64,000 nucleotides of DNA from an uncultured virus (IMG/VR IMGVR_UViG_2675903516_000002) (taxonomy: Duplodnaviria > Heunggongvirae > Uroviricota > Caudoviricetes), in the IMG/VR virus record IMGVR_UViG_2675903516_000002, one strand, 5' to 3'. Both the position numbers and the translations under genes were made by a program. This document shows, in pieces, positions 5,105 to 52,065 of this stretch. Each line of letters begins with the position of its first letter. Position 1 is the first letter of the stretch. The notes beneath the pieces were generated by a model. The model was not told where the DNA came from. It did not search any database and saw only the letters and a program-made list of their open reading frames with translations.

Positions 5105-5775
5105 TGTTCATGCCTCCAGACAGAATGGGTAAGGCGTAGGTAAGCTGGCCGTAGTTGTTCTCGACGGCTTAGACGTCCGATGTTTTCATGATGAAGAATG
5201 GTGTTATCACCGAGATAAATCATGGCGTGGCAAGGGTCGGTTTCAGGGAATGCACGCCGGATAAGCACATCACCTGGCTGAATATCTTGCATCTCAATCG
5301 GATGAAATCTATTGGCTGGCATGTTCTTCAAGTAAAGGTTTTCGCCTCGAAGCCACCAACCGTTAGTGCGTTCAAAATCAGGTAAGTCGATGCCGCATAA
5401 GTGGTAGGCGTCACGAAATAGCGTGTAGCAGTCCATCACACCATGCTTGAAAGTCCGACCTAGCAGGTACTCTACAGGTCTAAATTTCCGAAGCTTTCCA
5501 CCGCTAGCCAGCCACCAATCGATACCGGTTGCCAGTTGGGCTGTCCGATCTGCGCCAGATAGCACTAACTTTTGCCCTGGGTGAGAATGAAAAACGGCGG
5601 TGATTTCTCCCGCCGCTTCAGCATGCAACCAGTCATCGTCACTTATCCTGAAATGTCGCTCAGGTGTCGGATGCGCATTCCTGCACTTAATCAGACTCCT
5701 CCCATCAACTATCAGGCCGCAAACCTCATCACCAGACGAGGCCGCGAACTCAAGGCATTCATTTTCAAGCATCAT
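5047..5775 (-). CDS. K: Tail tip assembly protein (lambda K-like; JAB + NlpC/P60)
   Basis: EVCGL, HSHP...SGAD, DCYTLFRDAY motifs. Confidence 0.93.
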   Translation of the reverse strand: MMLENECLEFAASSGDEVCGLIVDGRSLIKCRNAHPTPERHFRISDDDWLHAEAAGEITAVFHSHPGQKLVLSGADRTAQLATGIDWWLASGGKLRKFRPVEYLLGRTFKHGVMDCYTLFRDAYHLCGIDLPDFERTNGWWLRGENLYLKNMPANRFHPIEMQDIQPGDVLIRRAFPETDPCHAMIYLGDNTILHHENIGRLSRREQLRPAYLRLTHSVWRHEQCSYLDLRGIFDDISARSL

Positions 5776-18770: not shown

Positions 18771-20168
18771 TTACTCCGGCATTTCGCTAACTGATTGAGA
18801 GGAATTGGCCTGGCGGAAAGAGCCATTCAGACCGGTTGAGGTTGCGCATTGGGCGAATAGCCCATCGAGAGCAGCGCCGTCTAAAGCGTTTACTGCGATA
18901 TCTTCAAGGCCAAACTTAGCTTTAACTGCTGATCGCTTTTCAGTCTTCTCCTTGTCGGAGTTAACGCTCAAGCTATTCACCACTGAATCAACACGATCGG
19001 CGAGTGCTTTAGCCCATAACGGTATCTCTTCACTGTTGGTGGCTTTATCTTTGGTGGTCTTATCATCAGCCTCTTTCTTTTCGCGAACAGCCTTCTCTTC
19101 CGGCGTTTCAGTTTTGATCTTTGCTTCTTCTGCATTCATTTGGTTGTATGCATCAAGCAATTCAGCTTCGGTCTTGCCTTCGGTCGGCTTACCTTTTGCT
19201 TTCAGTGCGTTAACAATCATGTCTTTCATCGGGTTTTCAGCTCCGTTGGTTTTAATTTCGTACTCAGTGGGTTTGCGCACGACTTCTACAGGTTCGCCGA
19301 CGAATTCAGCTGTGCCGTCATCGTCGATGAGGTACTTCTGTTGATATGTTTTGCCTTTATCGTTGTAGATGAACTTGTCCGGCCATACGGAATCAGGCCA
19401 TGAGTAAAAGTCATCAGGCTTACCCTCACGCAGCTTTTGGCTGAGTGCTCGCTGGATGTCATCAAAGGAGTAATTAGAAGCATTAGTGAAGAAGAACTTG
19501 GCTTTATTCAGCAACCCCTCTTCTGTGCAATTGGACGCATCTGCGAGGTTCACGGTTTCTATTTGAAGCTGGTCACCCTGGGCATTAACAAAGATCCCTA
19601 CACCTTCTTGCGTCGTTCCGGCTGGCGTCTCGTGCAACAGGATGGCGCAGTGGTCGTAATCTTGGTTGCGGGCAACCCAGTTATATTTTTTACCCTTGGA
19701 AACTCCTTTCCCTTCCGCTCGATTTAGCCCGAGGCCAGTTGAAACGCCGATCGGCTCAACCTCTTTCCCCCCCTTCATATCATCCAGTCTATTAACGACC
19801 TCTTTGCCCTTATCCGTCGCTTCGGCATAACGGCGGTTAACACACATATCCATCAGTACACGATCGCCGTCTTTACGAACGTTACGGGCGAATGCCCCAA
19901 TGTGATATTCGTTCACGGCCCGCACATTACTTGCGCTGACGTACTGGCCTTCAATCTTCGGATGCCCATACGGCATGGGCTTACCTTCAAGGCTTTTGAA
20001 GCCTTTGGAAATCTCGTCTGCCGGGTACAGTCCGCCATTGAGCACGATATCGTCGATGACAGGACAGACGTCCTTCACAACGATGTGCTCAACGCCATCA
20101 ATGGTTTCAGAAGTGATGTTTGAAGCGGAGTTGATGACCGACAGCACGTTTACGCAGATGCGTGACAT
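18771..20168 (-). CDS. Prohead protease/scaffold (DUF2213-like)
   Basis: DDIVLNGGLYPADEI, GHP, VSTGL, DHCAILL motifs; charged C-terminal part. Confidence 0.8.
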   Translation of the reverse strand: MSRICVNVLSVINSASNITSETIDGVEHIVVKDVCPVIDDIVLNGGLYPADEISKGFKSLEGKPMPYGHPKIEGQYVSASNVRAVNEYHIGAFARNVRKDGDRVLMDMCVNRRYAEATDKGKEVVNRLDDMKGGKEVEPIGVSTGLGLNRAEGKGVSKGKKYNWVARNQDYDHCAILLHETPAGTTQEGVGIFVNAQGDQLQIETVNLADASNCTEEGLLNKAKFFFTNASNYSFDDIQRALSQKLREGKPDDFYSWPDSVWPDKFIYNDKGKTYQQKYLIDDDGTAEFVGEPVEVVRKPTEYEIKTNGAENPMKDMIVNALKAKGKPTEGKTEAELLDAYNQMNAEEAKIKTETPEEKAVREKKEADDKTTKDKATNSEEIPLWAKALADRVDSVVNSLSVNSDKEKTEKRSAVKAKFGLEDIAVNALDGAALDGLFAQCATSTGLNGSFRQANSSQSVSEMPE

Positions 20169-21303: not shown

Positions 21304-22714
21304 CTCCATTCAGCGGATCCTTATCGGTTAGTTTTGCGTTAGGGTCTGGTTCTTTTGGCTCTTTGATTGTCTCAAGTTCACCAGCAGCGCGGATTTCGTT
21401 AATCTCTACCGCTGGCGTTCCGTATGCCTGCTGAGTTTTCTGCGCGATATCTGCAAGCTTGCCCATGTTGTCGAGCTTCTCACTGTCGCCCGGGGCGAGT
21501 AAATCCGACCAATCGACGGTAATTTCTCCCGCCTTAGGCTGAGGAATTACACCAAGATCACTCCACCTCTGAACGACGGTAGTGATGATGTAAGACAGCC
21601 AACTGCTTCTTCGGGAATTGCATCGAGCCGCCCACGCCTTCTTGTCCTCCGTTGAAGCAAGGTTCCCCGTTTGCTTGCCGAAAAGAATGTTGAATGGGCA
21701 ACGGATAGTTGCAGCGTAGCTGTTGGCAGATACAGTCCATGATGGCGTTGGGTCAGCAGCGGCCACCGATAGAACTGAAGCCTGACCGGCCTGCATAACC
21801 AGAGCGGAATCAGTCCCCCTATTCATCCTCACAATCTTATCGTTCAGTGCATCGCCGAGGTCTTTGAAACCGGCATCGGTGGCTGCCTTCTTCAGTGTCG
21901 CCATGTCAGTTTCTTTATCGAACTCAATTCCAAGCTGACGACTGGCGTTTTTCAGGAACCCCTCTGCGCTGCCGCCTTTGGTTTTCTCAATATCCAGCAG
22001 ATCATTATATCCGGCCTCATTGAGAGGTTCACCGGAAAGCATGTTGTCGTCTTCAGAGCCCTCGGCGAGAATTATCACCCGGTCTGGGTGCACTGTGATA
22101 CTTCTAACATTGCCGTATGTTCCGTCATCACCGATGGGCTGCTCATTGAACGTGTAGTTAACTGGCTGACTGTAAGTATCTGACCGCGTGTCGATGTCAT
22201 AACTGCCAGGCTTAATCTGTGATTCCCATGCGGGGATCAGCTTAACTAAAGCGGCCTCGCCTAGCTTTGCAACCAGCGCCTTATCTACAGGCTCTGACCA
22301 GTCACGATTGTCTTTTATTTGCAGAATGATCGCCGAGTAATGCCCGACCATGTTACGGCGGTCTGCATCCTTGATTTTTTCCCAATACTTTTTAAGAAGC
22401 TTGGTTACCGTCTTTTCCCAAGGCGTTTCTTTTTTCTTCTTATCAGCGAGAGGGCCATCAATGATGATTGGCTTATCAACCCAGCAGGAATCCAGCGTTA
22501 CGTGTACACCGGCATATGCAGCTGAGTTTCTGCGGTAAGTCCTATAGAAAGTTGCGAAACTTACAGTGTCCGGGTATCCAAATTCATCCCATAATGTTGT
22601 GCGCTTGGTGTTCCCGTTAAACTGACCGGCGTATAAAGCACGCTGGCGACCCACCGCGACTTGGTCAGCGAGGGCATTCACGAGGAACTGAACCTCGTTA
22701 TTGGTATCACTCAC
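21257..22714 (-). CDS. Portal protein (DUF1073-like)
   Basis: Follows TerL; IHPDRVII-type motif, PFNILFGKQTGNLASTED. Confidence 0.85.
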   Translation of the reverse strand: MSDTNNEVQFLVNALADQVAVGRQRALYAGQFNGNTKRTTLWDEFGYPDTVSFATFYRTYRRNSAAYAGVHVTLDSCWVDKPIIIDGPLADKKKKETPWEKTVTKLLKKYWEKIKDADRRNMVGHYSAIILQIKDNRDWSEPVDKALVAKLGEAALVKLIPAWESQIKPGSYDIDTRSDTYSQPVNYTFNEQPIGDDGTYGNVRSITVHPDRVIILAEGSEDDNMLSGEPLNEAGYNDLLDIEKTKGGSAEGFLKNASRQLGIEFDKETDMATLKKAATDAGFKDLGDALNDKIVRMNRGTDSALVMQAGQASVLSVAAADPTPSWTVSANSYAATIRCPFNILFGKQTGNLASTEDKKAWAARCNSRRSSWLSYIITTVVQRWSDLGVIPQPKAGEITVDWSDLLAPGDSEKLDNMGKLADIAQKTQQAYGTPAVEINEIRAAGELETIKEPKEPDPNAKLTDKDPLNGDGDSDQNRDTDSTAQ

Positions 22715-28625: not shown

Positions 28626-28889
28626 TCATAAATTAATCTTGATGTTATTTGCACCTGCGGCGATTTTTATAAAATAATTTATCAATTTTAAGTCCATCCA
28701 GTTCTTTTCGGATAATTGAATAACATGGCTTAAAATTGCCTCATGTGTCGAACATGAAGACAAAGGTATCTGATATGGATAGTCAACATTCAATGTAATG
28801 TAATCTCCATCCACATATATCTGTTTTTGAAGACGCTGAAAATCTTCAATAATCTTTTTTTTCATATTCTCATTATCCGCAAACTTCAT
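28626..28889 (-). CDS. AT-rich hypothetical protein
   Basis: 87 aa with GGAG RBS. Confidence 0.6.
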   Translation of the reverse strand: MKFADNENMKKKIIEDFQRLQKQIYVDGDYITLNVDYPYQIPLSSCSTHEAILSHVIQLSEKNWMDLKLINYFIKIAAGANNIKINL

Positions 28890-28931
28890 TCTTTATCTCC
28901 ATTTATTATAGTTATGTGACATGTCGCATCA

Positions 28932-29285
28932 CTATATAGTTAATTTAGTCTCATGCCAGCCAAGAGTTTGCCAGCATTCACTTTCACCTATAAATGCACA
29001 GCCCTGACTATCACCAGGTAGGGCATCGCCACATTTACCGCACTTGCGCCCAGCTTGCTCTTTGAGCTGCGCCTGTAGCTCTGCGTTATCTTTGCGTATC
29101 AACATAGTTATGTACTCGTCCATGTCATACGGCTCGCGCTGCGGCCGACGCAAGGCGCAGTTCTGCTGTAACATTTCCTTTTCTTGCTGGTCTATCGTCG
29201 CTATTAATTTATAACTGCCGTTCTCACGTTCTTTTTGCCGTTGTAGGCGTTTACGGGCCGTAGCCCGTTCCTTGGTGTCAGTCAT
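28932..29285 (-). CDS. Cys-rich putative DNA-binding protein, homolog of 51374-51733
   Basis: Basic N-terminus, YDMDEYITMLIRKDN, CGKCGDALPG...C...CWQT. Confidence 0.8.
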   Translation of the reverse strand: MTDTKERATARKRLQRQKERENGSYKLIATIDQQEKEMLQQNCALRRPQREPYDMDEYITMLIRKDNAELQAQLKEQAGRKCGKCGDALPGDSQGCAFIGESECWQTLGWHETKLTI

Positions 29286-31447
29286 GCCGCCATCCTCCAA
29301 ATACACAACTCTGGCATATTCGCCCTTACCAATGCCTCGGCAAAAGGTGGCGGTACCGCATTACCACACCTTGCCACCTGCTCAGATTTAGGCCAGATTG
29401 TGCCGTCAATATCTCGGTCAATAATGTAGTCTGGCGGGAACCCACTAGCGTTGTACAGTTCACGCGCAATCAGCATGCGCATACAAATATCAACGATGAT
29501 GTATTCGCCTACCGATAGAAATTGTGGCCGTGGTGCAGGGAATAAATGCCAGTCGTCCGGCAAATCGCTGAAATGATCCACCAGCCGCGCGCAGTTCCAT
29601 GCGTTGTAGCGTTGCTCGTCGGTCAGTGGTTCGGCATCAAGATTGCTTTCCACCAAGCCAAAACGTTCTTTGGTTGTCACAGCATGTATCGGCTCTGATA
29701 AATCCACCTCGCCGCCAGTGCCGTAATACTTGGTCAGAAATGCGTTTACCAGTCCGACATGATTACCGCCCGCGGTTAAAGTCGGTACCGGTTCGGTGAT
29801 GGGTTTACCATCGCGACATGTACCACGCAGTTGTACCAGGTGAGATGTACAAAGCGCATGGTGATCGACCGTAGTGATAGTATGCAATGGCTCGTTAATA
29901 TCGATGCCTGCACCGGTGTAATTTCCACCGTAATGCTTAACAAGGTTAGCAGTGGCGATTGCTGTATGTGACTGAGTAGCAATGGTGTTGATTGGTGAAT
30001 TGATATCTCGTGGTTTTCCTGAGTATGTTGGGCCACCGGCCCCCACCAATACCGCACTGGCTAACTGGCTTTTACCGCCCCCACCCGCTGTAACGGTACC
30101 CAGCGGCGTATTGATATCATTTGCCGTACTGTTACCGAACTGACGTACAACTACCGGCGCAGCAATAGCAAAACCATGCGTTCTGGTTATGGTCTGTAAC
30201 GGATCGCGCAATGACTGCCCACGGAAACAATCATATTTGGTTTTGGTGCTGGTGTGATTGCACTTCACCGCATACGGCTCCAGCAACAAATGCTCGGCCT
30301 TACTGGTAATTGTGGTTAGTGGCTGGTCTATTGGGTATTGCAGACGGTCACCACCAAAACCAGTTTGTCCCAGTCGCACAATAAACGGATCGGGGTTATC
30401 AATAACAAACCGCTGTAATCCTTTGACGATGCGCCGCAAGGTGTTATCAGCCAAATCCTTTTTGCGACCGAAAATAGAACGTGTTGGCTGGCTCCAGTCG
30501 ATACACTCCGCCGCCGTTCGCCAAGGTTGCAGCATGCCAGAAAGCACATCAGTAGAGTTGGGTGCGCCGTGGCTTGGCTCCGGCCAGACAACTGGCTCAC
30601 CGTCACAACGCCCAACCACAAACAACCGTTTTCTAATAGTGGGTGTGCCGTAATCACAGGCTTTCAGTTCCCGGTGATCAACGTTATAACCCAGCCCTGA
30701 AACCAACCTTGCTGCTTCAGGGCCATTGATATCTATCTTCAAGAATTCACACACTTCGACCAGTGCGGGGTGATTAGCATCAATCCCAGTACCTAGCATG
30801 CCAATAAACGCTTTGAACGTTTCGCCTTTACGGGCTGGATCAGGTCGGTGATTGCCTTCACTATCCGTCAAAAGTGGCCCCCAGCCGCGAAATTCTTCGA
30901 CGTTCTCCAGCATCAGAAAACGTGGGCGTACTGCCAGCGCCCAGCGCAATACGACCCATGCCAGACCACGAATCTCTTTCTTGACTGGCGTTCCGCCCTT
31001 GGCCTTAGAGAAATGGCGGCAATCAGGACTAAACCAACCCAGTAATACCGGTAAACCGCCCGTTGAGATGAGCGGATCAACACTGAAAATATCCTCAGGG
31101 TAATGCAGCGTGCGCGGGTGATTAATGGCATGCATCGCCATGGCTACCGGATTATGGTTCATCGCGATGTGTGGTTCATAGCCTAATGCTTGCTTGATTC
31201 CCTCGCAGCTCCCACCGCCACCAGCGAACCCAACGACAACCAGACCATCCTGCAAATCAGGTCGTGCAACTGTGATTTCTTTGCGCCGCGCCCATGCATG
31301 AGCCGCCTTTTGAATGTTGCGCGGGTCTTCTCGCGTCAAAAACATTTGGTTCATATTGGCCAGTAGCTGCTGTTGCTCTGGCTCACTCATTGGGTGAACA
31401 GGAATGACTGATGAGGCACATTGCTGAACTTCAGTAGGCCAGATCAT
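29282..31447 (-). CDS. Phage DNA cytosine-5 methyltransferase
   Basis: FAGGGG, PDCRHFS, ENV, RKR, GNAVPP motifs; repeated PLxTIT segments. Confidence 0.92.
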   Translation of the reverse strand: MIWPTEVQQCASSVIPVHPMSEPEQQQLLANMNQMFLTREDPRNIQKAAHAWARRKEITVARPDLQDGLVVVGFAGGGGSCEGIKQALGYEPHIAMNHNPVAMAMHAINHPRTLHYPEDIFSVDPLISTGGLPVLLGWFSPDCRHFSKAKGGTPVKKEIRGLAWVVLRWALAVRPRFLMLENVEEFRGWGPLLTDSEGNHRPDPARKGETFKAFIGMLGTGIDANHPALVEVCEFLKIDINGPEAARLVSGLGYNVDHRELKACDYGTPTIRKRLFVVGRCDGEPVVWPEPSHGAPNSTDVLSGMLQPWRTAAECIDWSQPTRSIFGRKKDLADNTLRRIVKGLQRFVIDNPDPFIVRLGQTGFGGDRLQYPIDQPLTTITSKAEHLLLEPYAVKCNHTSTKTKYDCFRGQSLRDPLQTITRTHGFAIAAPVVVRQFGNSTANDINTPLGTVTAGGGGKSQLASAVLVGAGGPTYSGKPRDINSPINTIATQSHTAIATANLVKHYGGNYTGAGIDINEPLHTITTVDHHALCTSHLVQLRGTCRDGKPITEPVPTLTAGGNHVGLVNAFLTKYYGTGGEVDLSEPIHAVTTKERFGLVESNLDAEPLTDEQRYNAWNCARLVDHFSDLPDDWHLFPAPRPQFLSVGEYIIVDICMRMLIARELYNASGFPPDYIIDRDIDGTIWPKSEQVARCGNAVPPPFAEALVRANMPELCIWRMAA

Positions 31448-35203: not shown

Positions 35204-35668
35204 TTATACGGTGGTCAGCCGGTGGTGTTGTGGTCTGATTGCGTGAAGTGCCGCAACAGCGCCCGATATCCTTTGTGACATGTCACAGCCATCTAATAGA
35301 ACCGCGCTAATTGCTGCGGCAAACTCTCGACTGGCAATCGAAACCAAATAATTCACGGTCTCGCCATTCACCCTGGCCCGCCGTTCTGCCGGGAGTGCCG
35401 CTTTAAGTACCGGTGATAATTCCAAGACCTTGCGCATTGATGCTTTTGAATCCCCGCGCAGCCAGCGAAATAACTGCTGCCGGTTGTTGTTAATAGACTT
35501 CCAATCAGCGCCGCCCTGCCCGTTTTCAATGGGAGTGAGACGAACTGAACCGGTGTTGATATTGAGCAAGAAAAACATTCTGCTGATCTCGATAGCTACA
35601 TGCTCCTGCCCCCGCTCTGCCGCCCACGCCTGAACTTCGGCTTTAAGGGCTTTAATTTCTTGTTCCAC
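35204..35668 (-). CDS. YdaT-family CII-like regulator
   Basis: VQAWAAERGQEHVA...NRQQLFRWL; cII position. Confidence 0.8.
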   Translation of the reverse strand: MEQEIKALKAEVQAWAAERGQEHVAIEISRMFFLLNINTGSVRLTPIENGQGGADWKSINNNRQQLFRWLRGDSKASMRKVLELSPVLKAALPAERRARVNGETVNYLVSIASREFAAAISAVLLDGCDMSQRISGAVAALHAIRPQHHRLTTV

Positions 35669-35914: not shown

Positions 35915-35944
35915 AGGAACTCCTTGTTTAACTCAGGATGAAAG

Positions 35945-36006
35945 GTAACAAAAGGTACATAACAATGCAAACACTTTTCACATCGCTATGGCGTAACATT
36001 GGTTAC
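35945..36006. promoter_or_regulatory. OR operators (GTAAC-N4-GKTAC)
   Basis: gtaacaaaaggtac 35945-35958; gtaacattggttac 35993-36006. Confidence 0.7.
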
Positions 36007-36669
36007 ATGAAAAATGAAATGAATGACCGCATCCGTCTTCGCAGACTGCAGCTAGATCTCACGCAAGTCCAATTAGCCAAAGCTATTGGGGTGAGCCGTG
36101 TATCAGTGACAAAATGGGAGTCAGGAATCACTAAACCAGATGGGGAAAATCTTCACCGGCTGGCGCAAATACTTTCATGCACGCCAGAGTGGTTACTCTA
36201 TGGTACCGGAGATTTACGTCAGGTTGACGATACGAAGATTAAGCCCCTCGTCGCTGTGCCTAATGCCATACCTGTCATCTCATCCGTTCAAGCCGGTGCC
36301 TGGACAGAAACCTACTCCGCCGCCCGTATCTCTGATGTTCTTAGATGGTGCAACACCACAGTGAAGGTTTCTGAAAACGCATTTGGTTTGGATGTTCGGG
36401 GTGAGTCAATGACCAACCCCAATGGTTCCCCTTCTATCCCCGAGGGGTCTACCGTTATCGTAGAACCTAATTATGGTTCTATTGATGATTTGTACGGTAA
36501 AATAGTGGTCGCCATCATTGATGGCAGCTCCGAGGCCACCATTAAAAAGTTAGTTGTTGATGGCCCCAATAAATACCTAATGCCTTTAAATCCCAATTTC
36601 AAACCCATCGAAATAAACGGCAATTGCCGTATTCTCGGTCGCGTTGTTCAGGTTACCCAAGACCTGTAA
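36007..36669 (+). CDS. cI: CI repressor (HTH + S24 autopeptidase)
   Basis: HTH, VQAGAW cleavage site, GESM serine and TIKKL lysine. Confidence 0.95.
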   Translation: MKNEMNDRIRLRRLQLDLTQVQLAKAIGVSRVSVTKWESGITKPDGENLHRLAQILSCTPEWLLYGTGDLRQVDDTKIKPLVAVPNAIPVISSVQAGAWTETYSAARISDVLRWCNTTVKVSENAFGLDVRGESMTNPNGSPSIPEGSTVIVEPNYGSIDDLYGKIVVAIIDGSSEATIKKLVVDGPNKYLMPLNPNFKPIEINGNCRILGRVVQVTQDL

Positions 36670-37065: not shown

Positions 37066-37375
37066 CAGAATTTGGGTTGTTGCATTGGAGGAGAACCCCG
37101 CGCCAAGGCTCGGCATGATTACCACAGTGCAGCAGCCCAAACCAATAACGTAGCCACGACGGGAAAGTGTGGTGAGGCAAGACCGAAGATCTGACCCGCT
37201 GGCCCGGCGTAATGGGCACCAAATTACAGACGTAAAAAAACCCACCGAAGTGGGCTTCTTTACCCCGGGTCACCGACCAAAGTTAACCGGGAAGCTAACG
37301 GGGACCAACCCGTTAACAGAGGCAAGACCAACGGCTTACGCCATCAATCTTAAAATAAGTATATCAGGAGTTGCT

Positions 37376-37711
37376 ATGACAGCACTACAGATAACCACCA
37401 AGCTCTACATCCATACCAATCCATATTCAACATCAAAAGATGATCGCTTTACCGTGTACACCTGTGACATGTCACAGGTTGAGCCAGCGCATGTTTTACT
37501 CGAAACCCGAGAAATTACGATTCCTTTTGACGAACCCGACCCTTTTGAAATCATCAGCAAGCATGTCGATTCACTCCATAGCAAAAAGGAACAGATTGCG
37601 GCTGAGTCATATCGTAAGCAGTCACTAATTGATGATCAGATTCAGGCGTTGCTATGCATCGAGCACAGCACTCCATCGAACGTATCTGATGATACCGAAA
37701 TTCCTTTTTAA
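37376..37711 (+). CDS. Hypothetical early protein
   Basis: AGGAG RBS; ends in DDTEIPF, like an SSB acidic tail. Confidence 0.75.
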   Translation: MTALQITTKLYIHTNPYSTSKDDRFTVYTCDMSQVEPAHVLLETREITIPFDEPDPFEIISKHVDSLHSKKEQIAAESYRKQSLIDDQIQALLCIEHSTPSNVSDDTEIPF

Positions 37712-43435: not shown

Positions 43436-44467
43436 TTAGAATATCTTTAATCGATCATATGGATTCAAACTCACTGCCGCTTCTAAATGATCCGGTGCAA
43501 AGTGGCTATAACGCATGGTCATTTGGATAGTGGAGTGCCCGAGGATTTGTTGCAGTACTAATATGTTGCCACCGTTCATCATAAAATGACTGGCGAATGT
43601 ATGGCGTAGAACGTGGGTTAACTGGCCGGTAGGTAGCACCAGTTTAGCCCGGTCGATAGCTTGACCAAATGCATCATAGGCATTGGCGAATAAGCGCCCT
43701 TTCATCTTTGGAATTAGTTTATGCAGTTCCGCAGAAATAGGGACTGTTCGGTTCTTTTTACTCTTGGTGTTGATATAAGTAATTTTATTTGGCATCACCT
43801 GAGCTTGTCTTAGTTGCTCCGCTTCACTCCAGCGTGCACCGGTAGCCAGACAGATACGAACGATGATACCGAGATCTTTGTTACTGGAACTGTCACACTC
43901 ATGCAGCAGACGCTTAATATCGTCCTCATAAAGGAAAGTTAATTCGTTTTCACTTTCACGAAATAACCTGACGCCATCCAGCGGATTCGCATGATTCCAA
44001 TGCCCTAGCCTTTTCAACTCATTAAAGACAGCTCGCAGATAAGCATGTTCGCGGTTGACCGTTGCCTCTTTTGGCGGTTTAACGATTCCGTGTTTTGGCT
44101 TACGACTAAACTCACCGGCTAAACGCTGCTTGCGGTATTTGGCGAACACTTCCCGGTCAAAATCAGCAACAGCAGGATCGCCCAAGTTATCACACAGGAT
44201 ATTGAGTTTATCTAATCTTGCTTTACCGTCACTCAAAGAGCGCCCGTGGAGTTCATACCACTGACCGACCAATGTTTTTAACCTCTGCGCGGCAGTCTCT
44301 GCCGGTGTGTAGTCAATATCCAGATCACCACGTTGCGCTAACTGCTCACGTTCAAAGCGCAACGCCTCGCCGCGAGTAACAAAGGTTTTCCTAACCCGCT
44401 TACTGTCACGTCCATCTGAGTAAAAATCACAGACCCACTTTCCGTTGGGTAACTTCCGTACTGCCAT
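43436..44467 (-). CDS. int: Tyrosine integrase (186/HP1-like)
   Basis: TGARWSEA, HVLRHTFASHFM, LGH...TMRYSH. Confidence 0.96.
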   Translation of the reverse strand: MAVRKLPNGKWVCDFYSDGRDSKRVRKTFVTRGEALRFEREQLAQRGDLDIDYTPAETAAQRLKTLVGQWYELHGRSLSDGKARLDKLNILCDNLGDPAVADFDREVFAKYRKQRLAGEFSRKPKHGIVKPPKEATVNREHAYLRAVFNELKRLGHWNHANPLDGVRLFRESENELTFLYEDDIKRLLHECDSSSNKDLGIIVRICLATGARWSEAEQLRQAQVMPNKITYINTKSKKNRTVPISAELHKLIPKMKGRLFANAYDAFGQAIDRAKLVLPTGQLTHVLRHTFASHFMMNGGNILVLQQILGHSTIQMTMRYSHFAPDHLEAAVSLNPYDRLKIF

Positions 44468-44502: not shown

Positions 44503-44522
44503 TACTGTATATAAAAACAGTA
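44503..44522. promoter_or_regulatory. LexA box upstream of int
   Basis: TACTGTATATAAAAACAGTA next to TTGACT on minus strand. Confidence 0.85.
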
Positions 44523-44765: not shown

Positions 44766-45650
44766 TCAAACGGCAAAGCTTTTCCATTGTTCTTCACTAA
44801 TGATTTTTAAAGGGACACCCTTTTCATCACGATAGTTAATAGCTAACTCTATTTTTCTGCCATAGCTTTGGAAACGCCAATCACGGGAGCTTAAAGCGCC
44901 AATAATTAGGTAGTCTATTTTTTGAGTTATCGTATCCACGACAATGCCACCGGCAGCCTCTATTTCTGTCTTGCATTGATTGCGGCTTCCGCACAAAAAC
45001 TTACCCGTCAGACAGACTACAGAATCTTGCAAATCAATATTATCTACATGCTCAATAGGCAATCGTGTTGCCATTCCATCCACAACTCCATTGGCTATAT
45101 CACAACCGGTAAAATCAATCAGCGCTTGTTTTAAGGCTTCTCTTTCATCTGGAGTTATAATGCCATCGGCTAAAATATCTTTAACTAACTTGTACAGCTC
45201 TTTGCCGGGATAATTATTCTTCAACATACCATTCTGAGAAAGCCACCAGTCAAGATAGCGGACTTCACTTTCTATCAATTGGTGATTTGCCAGCATGCCT
45301 TTGCATAATCCCTCAAGCAAATGCTGGTCTGATTCAGATGAGTAAAGATCGATATCTGGCGTGTCGAGCAAGTTTTGTTGGATGTCAATCAGGTCAATTT
45401 TAAACTGAGCCAGTTCTTCTTTTTCAATAACACCATCTTCTAAAATGGCAGCTATTTTTGTTCGAATTGCATCAACACAATAATTTTCACAAATAATTTC
45501 AGATTCTAATAACCATGTATCCAAAAAGACGAGTTCTCGGGTATCAACTTCACCATCACAAATAATACCTTCGATCAAATTAATTAGATTAGTTAACAGT
45601 TTTTCTCTATTGCGTGAGTAGTTAAAAACACTGAGTTTCTTATCATCCAT
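44766..45650 (-). CDS. Protein with duplicated TerB-like helical unit and C-terminal BRCT domain
   Basis: Repeated ILxDGxI..EE/DE motif; VCLTGKFLCGSR...GG...IDYLIIG...GRKIELA...IISEEQW. Confidence 0.8.
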   Translation of the reverse strand: MDDKKLSVFNYSRNREKLLTNLINLIEGIICDGEVDTRELVFLDTWLLESEIICENYCVDAIRTKIAAILEDGVIEKEELAQFKIDLIDIQQNLLDTPDIDLYSSESDQHLLEGLCKGMLANHQLIESEVRYLDWWLSQNGMLKNNYPGKELYKLVKDILADGIITPDEREALKQALIDFTGCDIANGVVDGMATRLPIEHVDNIDLQDSVVCLTGKFLCGSRNQCKTEIEAAGGIVVDTITQKIDYLIIGALSSRDWRFQSYGRKIELAINYRDEKGVPLKIISEEQWKSFAV

Positions 45651-51373: not shown

Positions 51374-51733
51374 ATGACTAAAACCGACGCCACTACCCGT
51401 AAACAGGCACAGCGCCAGCGTGATAAATCCGCCGGTATCAATGAAATTCGCGCCCGACTGGAGCCAGAAGAGTTCGCCATGCTAATCGAGGGCATGACCG
51501 CCCGGCGTCTGTTCCGGCCAGCTTACGATTTACCGGAATATATCGCGCTGCTGATTCGACAAGATAACCAGCGACTAAAAGAGCAACAAGCCGAGCTGGG
51601 TAAACAACGCTGTGGCAAATGTGGCGATACCTTGCCGGGCGATCCAAATGGGTGTTGTTTACGGGGTGAAGCGGCGTGTTGGCAAACCAAAGGTATCAAC
51701 AGCTTATTAATTAGTGCAGTTAAACCATTGTGA
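51374..51733 (+). CDS. Cys-rich putative DNA-binding protein, homolog of 28932-29285
   Basis: YDLPEYIALLIRQDN, CGKCGDTLPGD...CWQT. Confidence 0.8.
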   Translation: MTKTDATTRKQAQRQRDKSAGINEIRARLEPEEFAMLIEGMTARRLFRPAYDLPEYIALLIRQDNQRLKEQQAELGKQRCGKCGDTLPGDPNGCCLRGEAACWQTKGINSLLISAVKPL

Positions 51734-51809
51734 CGCGTCACGGCGGATTACTTTTACAACATATAGCGCGTCACAAGCATCTGATTTAACTAAACAGCCA
51801 TATACAGTA

Positions 51810-51854
51810 TTGACCTGAATATTGTTTTACTCGATACTGTATATAAATACAGTA
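51810..51854 (+). promoter_or_regulatory. SOS promoter of tum with LexA box
   Basis: TTGACC-17-GATACT; TACTGTATATAAATACAGTA at 51835-51854. Confidence 0.88.
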
Positions 51855-51870: not shown

Positions 51871-52065
51871 TTGAAACCCGTTGATAAAATAGAATTAACA
51901 CTATCAAGAATTCAGTTTATTGCTGAAGTTTCGCAAGTTGCACAGTGTAGTAATAGCGAGTTTCTTGTCGCCATGTCGTTGATATCAGACCTGACCAGCC
52001 AGATAGTCACGAGCCAAAATTATGATGAGATTTTCTATAACGCCGACGGTAAAAAATCGCACTGA
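51871..52065 (+). CDS. tum: Tum-like SOS-induced antirepressor
   Basis: LSRIQFIAEVS...AMSLISDL; LexA box; position as in phage 186. Confidence 0.75.
   Translation: MKPVDKIELTLSRIQFIAEVSQVAQCSNSEFLVAMSLISDLTSQIVTSQNYDEIFYNADGKKSH

Follow-up and report, generated by a model that had tools for sequence, protein, structure and literature searches.

The 64,000-nucleotide stretch of DNA analysed here (the window; IMG/VR record IMGVR_UViG_2675903516_000002, from an uncultured virus) carries a lambdoid, ZF40-like prophage and a P2/186-like prophage, and each of them encodes a small protein of the PHROG 536 family whose gene ends at a short DNA palindrome. Copy 1, an open reading frame (ORF) of 117 amino acids, lies at 28932-29285 on the minus strand in the lambdoid prophage; copy 2, of 119 amino acids, lies at 51374-51733 on the plus strand in the P2-like prophage. 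A reading made earlier from the letters of this DNA (the sequence-only reading) had taken the two ORFs for homologs, which they are: a pairwise alignment gave 43% identity over 115 amino acids (E value 2e-32), and they match PHROG 536 at E values of 2.9e-40 and 2.9e-41, respectively, both covering positions 2-114 of the 115 in the profile. The label of this family, "transcriptional regulator", comes from annotation and not from experiment. Neither window protein had a Pfam match at E values up to 1 or an NCBIfam match, and literature searches found no paper on the family and no paper containing the exact 12-mer palindrome. From the evidence presented below we conclude that the pairing of gene and palindrome is genuine and conserved, a protein-site module belonging to an unstudied family, and that this module is very likely a regulator travelling with its own binding site.

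The palindrome, GTGACNNGTCAC (GTGAC-N2-GTCAC), is found exactly at three places in the window, beginning at 35275, 37464, and 51730, where only 0.06 copies are expected. None of 100 dinucleotide shuffles reached three copies, bearing out the sequence-only reading on both the positions and the rarity of the perfect sites. Spacers of 0, 1, or 3-8 nucleotides gave 0 or 1 match each. When up to one mismatch to GTGACNNGTCAC was allowed, six matches were found against 1.16 expected; the one-mismatch matches at 22294 and 53929 are probably due to chance. The other one-mismatch site, GTGACATGTCGC at 28916-28927, lies 4 nucleotides past the TAG stop codon of copy 1 and 5 nucleotides upstream of a TATAAT hexamer preceding ORF 28626-28889, the next ORF past the end of copy 1. 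Close relatives (L128, L129, L137, and L143) have a perfect palindrome at this place, and by that comparison the 28916 site is a degenerate copy. At the end of copy 2 the association is closer still: the TGA stop codon (51731-51733) lies inside the left half of the perfect site GTGACGCGTCAC (51730-51741), whose central dinucleotide is CG. Two Yersinia P2-like phages (L205 and L306) share this arrangement, in which the stop codon is part of the site. The earlier claim that both stop codons abut the palindrome thus stands, one of them within a perfect site and the other 4 nucleotides from a degenerate one. An extra half-site, GCGTCAC at 51766-51772, follows 25 nucleotides past the 51730 palindrome, and L205 likewise has a second, imperfect site after its palindrome.

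The two remaining perfect sites are within genes. One of them, GTGACATGTCAC at 35275-35286, is inside the 3' part of the minus-strand ORF 35204-35668, which from its position and from the annotation of ZF40 would be a YdaT/CII-like gene. The site lies about 640 nucleotides downstream of the start of the cro-like gene, and its place is kept in ZF40 gp12 (annotated as CII-like) and in 11 unique relatives. Across these 11 unique sequences the codons at the site are all fixed as xGT GAC ATG TCA Cxx, and the flanks are 75% conserved. A site that is invariant, with every synonymous choice fixed, points to selection on the DNA itself, although the resulting D-M-S tripeptide may matter to the protein too. 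The dispersed sites are intragenic, as in the sequence-only reading, and are also conserved at the DNA level. The second intragenic site, at 37464-37475, forms the core of a 20-bp palindrome (37460-37479) in the frame of an early-left ORF, 37169-37711, on the plus strand. These sites are 2189 bp apart, on either side of the cI-like repressor gene (35938-36669) and the cro-like gene, and the same pair is present in ZF40 (at 5125 and 7622) and in loci L124-L136.

Beyond the window, the association of gene and palindrome was followed in the best 80 of at least 563 related IMG/VR loci, each taken with a 10-kb flank. GTGACNNGTCAC was present in 78 of these 80 homolog-encoding loci, at 138 copies in 1.35 Mb against about 1.3 expected under a uniform model; because the loci come from related phages, some of them identical, these copies do not represent independent events. 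In the same DNA, spacers of 0, 1, and 3-8 yielded 0-5 copies, and reversed or everted control palindromes 0-4. In 46 of the 80 loci the site begins one base before the stop of the gene, the TGA being part of GTGAC; in six more it lies within -12 to +40 nucleotides of the stop, and in four the protein reads through the site. The remaining 24 loci include six with a one-mismatch site at the gene end, as for copy 1 of the window, and one that is cut by the end of the locus. The layout of gene plus palindrome recurs in at least four phage backbones, namely, epsilon15-like podoviruses (where the homolog is gp49), ZF40-like lambdoid phages (gp22), N15-like plasmid prophages (gene 46, encoding gp46), and Yersinia P2-like phages, and it was on this basis that the proposed mobile protein-site module could be upheld. 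The family as a whole is small, comprising 214 representatives at E values up to 1e-3 among 1.84 billion. Its members occur in N15, epsilon15, phiV10, ZF40, and Vibrio phages, and also in Yersinia, Escherichia, Salmonella, and Klebsiella prophages of the P2-like and lambdoid types. Starting instead from the site, an IMG/VR scan for the 14-mer TGTGACATGTCACA found the gene within a 6-kb flank in 22 of the 80 loci fetched; of 20 whole records searched, 8 contained it.

Whole bacterial genomes gave a similar result. These counts cover the AT-centred 12-mer GTGACATGTCAC, and sites with other centres are consequently missed. The 12-mer was present in all 28 bacterial genomes that encode a homolog (statements on these genomes hold equally if G026 is removed). 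In 27 of them, leaving aside the Providencia burhodogranariea genome G044 considered below, there are 62 copies, against two of the reversed control. Of these 62, 32 are found no farther than 10 kb from the gene, in a combined 0.5 Mb of about 130 Mb. The sequence-only reading had accepted that an equal frequency of the motif where the gene is absent would speak against its proposal. In an even sample of 121 genomes from the same GTDB family, however, the 12-mer was found in seven of nine genomes with the gene and in only 10 of 112 without it (Fisher p 9e-6); the control pattern had five matches in all 121. Within the genus Providencia (24 genomes), all 14 genomes with a strong match to the family hold 2-87 sites, whereas the seven without a match hold 0, 0, 1, 4, 0, 0, and 2 copies, at least two sites thus being present in two of the seven.

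What kind of protein is linked to these sites was approached through its predicted structure. An AlphaFold2 (AF2) model with a mean pLDDT of 77.6 shows a helix at residues 3-21 and an extended stretch at 22-32; two further helices follow (33-46 and 55-78), and the tail is rich in Cys. A VIA wide structure search returned nearly only ribbon-helix-helix (RHH) proteins, aligned from residue 22-30 onward, within residues 22-82, and including MazE, MatP-matS, TraM, TacA, NikR, ParD, PutA, and AmrZ, at Z scores of 4-5.7; as these scores are below the level deemed safe by the tool, we call the fold no more than RHH-like. Foldseek gave weak matches, with E values above 2, again mostly to RHH proteins, and a profile search of solved structures had no match at E values up to 10. 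The tail carries the pattern C-x2-C-x9-11-C-x7-C in both window copies and in 13 of the 15 other sequences of our alignment of 17 homologs; the exceptions in that alignment are one sequence with a P at the first Cys and two that are frameshifted. The pattern is also present in the N15, epsilon15, Vibrio, and Providencia homologs, and this C-terminal four-cysteine knuckle probably binds zinc. Two named families were tried as relatives, and neither gave a profile match. MatP, whose matS site the sequence-only reading had compared with the palindrome, was rejected as kin: its site has a different spacer (3, against strictly 2 here), and there was neither a hit to Pfam PF06303 nor an appreciable hhalign probability (1.4%) between the alignment of 17 homologs and MatP sequences from four genomes. 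In the structural comparison that had been suggested, the predicted RHH-like fold is what the family protein would share with MatP. The RepB-RCR_reg/CopB family (PF10723) likewise gave no match at E values up to 1. It is the nearest named Atlas cluster, with a score of 0.84, which we treat as a lead only; 16% of the members of that cluster carry the family. One phage record names a homolog "RepB-like replication regulatory protein".

The half-sites are invariant, but the central pair of bases follows the protein clade. In N15 and two relatives (with proteins that share 90% and 80% identity with N15 gp46) the centre is CA/TG at all nine sites; it is CG in all three Yersinia P2-like copies (that of the window and those of two Yersinia phages); and it is AT in epsilon15 (3/3), in ZF40 (3/3), and at the majority of sites in the 80 viral loci. 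A Vibrio phage has the centres AC, AC, and CG. Some second sites of the AT group have other centres, and the clade rule is thus not absolute. The stretch that would form the RHH strand differs in parallel: the lambdoid copy reads YKLIATI there, the P2-like copy NEIRARL, and N15 RRDWVLE. The N-terminal helix, by contrast, keeps R11, K12, and R16 without change. A variable strand that reads the centre, together with a constant basic arm that reads GTGAC, would fit this pattern. The same differences, AT versus CG in the centre and the changed residues in the putative DNA-reading strand, make it doubtful that the two prophages of the window act on each other's sites, as had been proposed.

The behaviour of the central pair also bears on whether the palindrome works as RNA, that is, as a 3'-end hairpin for stability, termination, or protein binding. 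Many sites do have a stop codon on one side and a terminator on the other, and a palindrome reads the same in transcripts of either strand. The central pair, however, would be the loop of such a hairpin, and yet it co-varies with the protein clade; moreover, conservation is limited to 12-14 bases, with no lengthening of the stem by the flanks. Folding of the four window sites is predicted at -4.9 to -12 kcal/mol; for three of them, shuffled sequences do as well (z of -0.35, +0.44, and -1.31), the fourth reaching -2.44. We regard an RNA role as extremely improbable. Expression data had nothing to add, because the prophage was not in the samples: three raw RNA runs with the same species label and one metatranscriptome contained 0-4 partial reads and one 162-nucleotide contig.

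Linkage to the gene, exclusivity across genomes, the strict spacing, and the co-variation of centre and protein are together what lead us to infer, with good though not complete confidence, that the protein binds the palindrome. A different binder, whether a host factor or another phage protein, with the small gene linked to the site simply through shared ancestry of the segment, would account for five near-complete proviruses that have two sites and no gene, and for the 87 and 36 sites in two Providencia genomes with only one or two copies of the gene. It would not readily account for a linkage that is maintained, stop codon within the site, across four unrelated backbones, nor for a centre that changes with the protein clade. 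The 12-mer is, in addition, at chance level in the gene-less genomes (11 copies in 112), and a factor present throughout the Enterobacterales would predict chromosomal sites, none of which are seen outside Providencia. A different binder is thus quite improbable. Two specific identities for the palindrome were also rejected. The LexA operator (SOS box) is CTGT-N8-ACAG; the window site at 37462 fits this formally through its CT/AG flanks, as do 12 sites in related loci, but most sites have no outer CT/AG, and the true LexA-box-like sequences are separate and downstream. A cos or pac site was rejected by reasoning, since there are several copies per genome, they are self-complementary, and they also occur in P2-like and lambdoid contexts.

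Where the sites lie differs among the phage types. In the window and in ZF40, the two intragenic sites flank the repressor gene and are 2.2-2.5 kb apart. All three sites of epsilon15 are between a stop codon and a terminator hairpin: one at the gp49 stop, one at the hairpin after the large terminase gene, and one at the gp18 stop; one of the epsilon15 sites is also just upstream of the small terminase gene. The gp18 protein is unrelated to the PHROG 536 family; it is encoded by the last gene before a terminator, and its stop codon lies inside the palindrome (19517-19528 of L208, the epsilon15 locus), with the terminator at 19531-19556 directly after. N15 has a site at the gene 46 stop, another inside repA about 620 nucleotides from its start, and a third between gene 33 and genes 32-30. 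The P2-like phages have a single site.

From these positions we propose the following. The protein, of about 115 amino acids, would consist of an N-terminal basic helix, an RHH core, a long helix, and a four-Cys knuckle, and as an RHH dimer it would bind the palindrome YGTGAC-NN-GTCACR. One palindrome lies at the 3' end of its own gene, with the TGA inside it in most relatives, and up to two more sit at fixed places; in the lambdoid prophage of the window these are found on either side of the immunity region, a few hundred bases past the two early promoters. The protein would be produced from the early operon and, once bound, would damp transcription passing the sites. Its own gene would be among those affected, since a block at the 3' end of that gene provides feedback, and so would read-through into the following unit, be it an SOS-controlled tum-like gene, the nin/Q region, or the terminase genes. 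Action as a transcription barrier or operator fits sites past early promoters, sites before terminators, and phages of the P2-like type that have one site only. Taken as a whole, binding plus a barrier or operator with 3'-end feedback, this reading is tentative, and we would put its prospects at somewhat under even; its barrier component is drawn from the positions of the sites.

A second way in which bound protein might act is by bridging DNA, dimers at two or three sites associating through the long helix or the Cys-rich tail and thereby looping or insulating the boundaries of operons or of the immunity region, in the manner of MatP-matS bridging or the lambda OL-OR loop though with no kinship to them. 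Most phages other than the P2-like ones do keep two or three sites at conserved places, the members of a pair being 2.1-2.9 kb from each other and enclosing the immunity region in ZF40-like phages and in the window, or the terminase genes in epsilon15-like phages, and the three epsilon15 sites divide that genome at operon ends. The model also has a long helix after the RHH core, and MatP-matS (3vea_B) aligned with it at a Z score of 5.5 and a root-mean-square deviation (rmsd) of 1.3 over 46 residues. Nevertheless, the Yersinia P2-like phages keep the module with one site, which argues against bridging or segregation as the core function, the contents of the would-be loops differ among phage types, and there is no homology to MatP. 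Bridging as the main activity is accordingly a minority view, and unlikely.

The surroundings of the gene-end site raise yet another possibility, namely, that this site is the operator of the next downstream promoter, often one under SOS control, which the protein would activate or co-repress, the other sites being secondary. A LexA-box-like sequence is present 39-44 nucleotides past the gene-end site in 19 related loci (L159, L168, L170, L179, L202, and 14 others); in the five of these that were read, a TTGAC(T/G) hexamer occurs 6 or 7 nucleotides past the site, and the ORF after the site begins with MGFPSP in L168, L179, and L202, which we take to be UmuD-like. The window and the Yersinia P2-like phages have a LexA-box-like sequence 100-165 nucleotides downstream. 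In the window this is CTGTATATAAATACAG at 51837-51852 on the plus strand, about 100 nucleotides past the palindrome and upstream of ORF 51871-52065, whose counterpart in the Yersinia phage L205 is annotated as "tum protein". The N15 gene 33 site is 24 nucleotides upstream of TTGACG, with TAGAGT following 17 nucleotides on as a promoter-like element, and a chromosomal Providencia site lies 33 nucleotides before the start of its homolog. In epsilon15 and many relatives, by contrast, the gene-end site is followed by a terminator and not a promoter; other sites are intragenic or between convergent genes, and the distance to a downstream promoter varies from 6 to about 300 nucleotides. As a general explanation, promoter-proximal regulation therefore seems improbable, and the barrier or operator reading is kept as the preferred one.

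Providencia burhodogranariea (G044) encodes a single, orphan homolog outside any prophage (L232, 9957-10330), among LysR, aldo-keto reductase, major facilitator superfamily (MFS), RlmA, MntP, and phosphotransferase system (PTS) genes, with a palindrome 33 nucleotides upstream of its start codon. This genome contains 87 copies of the 12-mer, and another Providencia species (G185) contains 36. In 45 G044 copies sampled on one contig (loci within L238-L297), only YGTGACATGTCACR was common, in AT-rich DNA; a larger repeated or mobile element around the sites was accordingly rejected, as only 14 bases carry information. All but three of the 45 sampled sites are intergenic, and of the 40 that could be classed, 11 are between convergent genes, 25 between tandem genes, and four between divergent genes, with 17 of the 25 tandem sites nearer to the end of the upstream gene. 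Judged by generally assumed proportions for the intergenic classes, the small share of divergent, promoter-rich spacers agrees with a role at gene ends. One locus, L244, has a 33-bp tandem triple of sites. The Providencia case looks like a phage regulator adopted by the chromosome. More speculatively, and with clear doubt on our part, the protein might be a phage-borne boundary factor, a 14-bp palindrome being its mark wherever a transcription unit ends and on both sides of the immunity region; there it would block or insulate transcription and possibly loop the DNA, its own level being kept in check by the site in its stop codon. In P. burhodogranariea it would then have become chromosomal, with about 90 free-standing intergenic sites mostly away from promoters, as a newly evolved nucleoid or termination-zone factor.

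Several observations weigh against the barrier reading, or against the module more broadly. A gene-end site is absent from about 17 of the 80 viral loci, and the loci, as already said, are related. Five proviruses that are 94-100% complete (L008, L015, L051, L059, and L066; records G007, G008, G012, G013, and G015) have two sites within 12 kb and no PHROG 536 match at E values up to 1. Their sites are perfect and 3.3-5.8 kb apart, and L059 has immunity-region sequence in common with the window. The gene in cis is therefore not needed for sites to persist; these proviruses would be explained equally by recent loss of the gene, by another binder, or by a gene copy at some other place in the host. 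Conversely, an Aeromonas homolog had no site in the 6.9 kb scanned, and genomes G073, G093, and G175 encode homologs but have no 12-mer with the AT centre, the only centre searched. On the protein side, the structural Z scores are low, and the stretch at 22-32 was not called as a strand in the AF2 monomer. The null proportions used for Providencia were assumed ones. Finally, as the positions of the sites differ between phage types, a single mode of action is an assumption, and the barrier model has been built from positions. Two of the Providencia genomes, G175 and G153, encode a divergent subfamily in open frames of 129 amino acids (E values of about 1e-19 to 1e-21). This subfamily occurs in genomes or places that have no AT-centred site (G175, with two divergent copies, has none), and it may differ in specificity.

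Copy 1 is 59% identical to ZF40 gp22, whose gene has the equivalent position behind a methyltransferase gene. In the window, the upstream 721-amino-acid ORF (29282-31447) has a ZF40 counterpart annotated as a DNA methyltransferase, and its stop codon shares 4 nucleotides (ATGA) with the start of copy 1. The overlap suggests translational coupling of the small gene with the upstream ORF. The same ATGA start/stop overlap is present in ZF40 (gp21/gp22). Cytosine methyltransferase genes are also found in epsilon15 and N15, elsewhere in those genomes. Copy 2 is 93-98% identical to proteins of Yersinia enterocolitica P2-like phages and is directly 3' of a 767-amino-acid ORF; in a Yersinia P2-like phage, the matching ORF carries the annotation replication protein GpA. 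The P2-like prophage has a second LexA-box-like sequence, CTGTATATAAAAACAG, at 44505-44520 between ORFs 43436-44467 and 44766-45650.

Small RHH regulators with palindromic operators are familiar, but the PHROG 536 family has no Pfam or NCBIfam model and is unstudied in the literature that we found. The layout is also unusual: a putative operator is fused to the gene's stop codon, conserved intragenic sites lie on both sides of the immunity region, and other sites separate stop codons from terminators. As family members are present in well-known phages, an unrecognised layer of control may exist in model systems in which it can be tested. The clade-specific central dinucleotide offers a ready-made specificity code, and the Providencia expansion a natural case of a phage regulator turned chromosomal factor.

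Four known systems invite comparison. SlmA, a TetR-family protein, has the site consensus GTGAGTACTCAC. It resembles the present case in its 12-bp palindrome (GTGAx-NN-xTCAC) and in the limited number of chromosomal copies, but the fifth base differs. The 13-bp matS site, GTGAC-N3-GTCAC, has the same half-sites, and MatP, the organiser of the Ter macrodomain in Enterobacterales and Vibrio, and matS share further features with the present family: few dispersed sites per replicon, the same host groups, and an RHH element, predicted in the family, that is followed by a long helix (besides the 3vea_B alignment given above, 3veb_A was a weak Foldseek match). The spacer, on the other hand, is 2 in all 138 enriched sites of the family, and a spacer of 3 had one match in 1.35 Mb and none in the window. 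The family model has a single N-terminal helix before the core and not a helical-bundle domain, its four-Cys tail was not seen in the MatP sequences, and its gene is phage-borne with a site at its own end.

Similar in size are the small RHH repressors, whose N-terminal arm is basic and whose short operators are palindromic or pseudo-palindromic. CopG, CopB/RepA2 (PF10723, RepB-RCR_reg), Arc and Mnt of P22, and the RHH antitoxins resemble the family protein in size, predicted RHH-like fold, basic arm, and palindromic operators (putative in the family), and the RHH antitoxins and TraM head its lists of structural matches. They differ from it in that the family has a four-Cys tail and keeps its putative operators away from its own promoter: they lie where the family gene ends, within other genes, or at the ends of operons. 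For the position of the site a parallel is LacI, which at O3 in the 3' end of lacI reportedly acts as a roadblock, giving a truncated message and tagging by transfer-messenger RNA (tmRNA). In both cases a site for the protein, putative in the family, overlaps the end of the protein's own coding sequence, and feedback can result when the polymerase is blocked before the stop codon is transcribed. The folds are unrelated, however, and the PHROG 536 overlap, as seen in the sequences, is conserved across the family and in several phage types.

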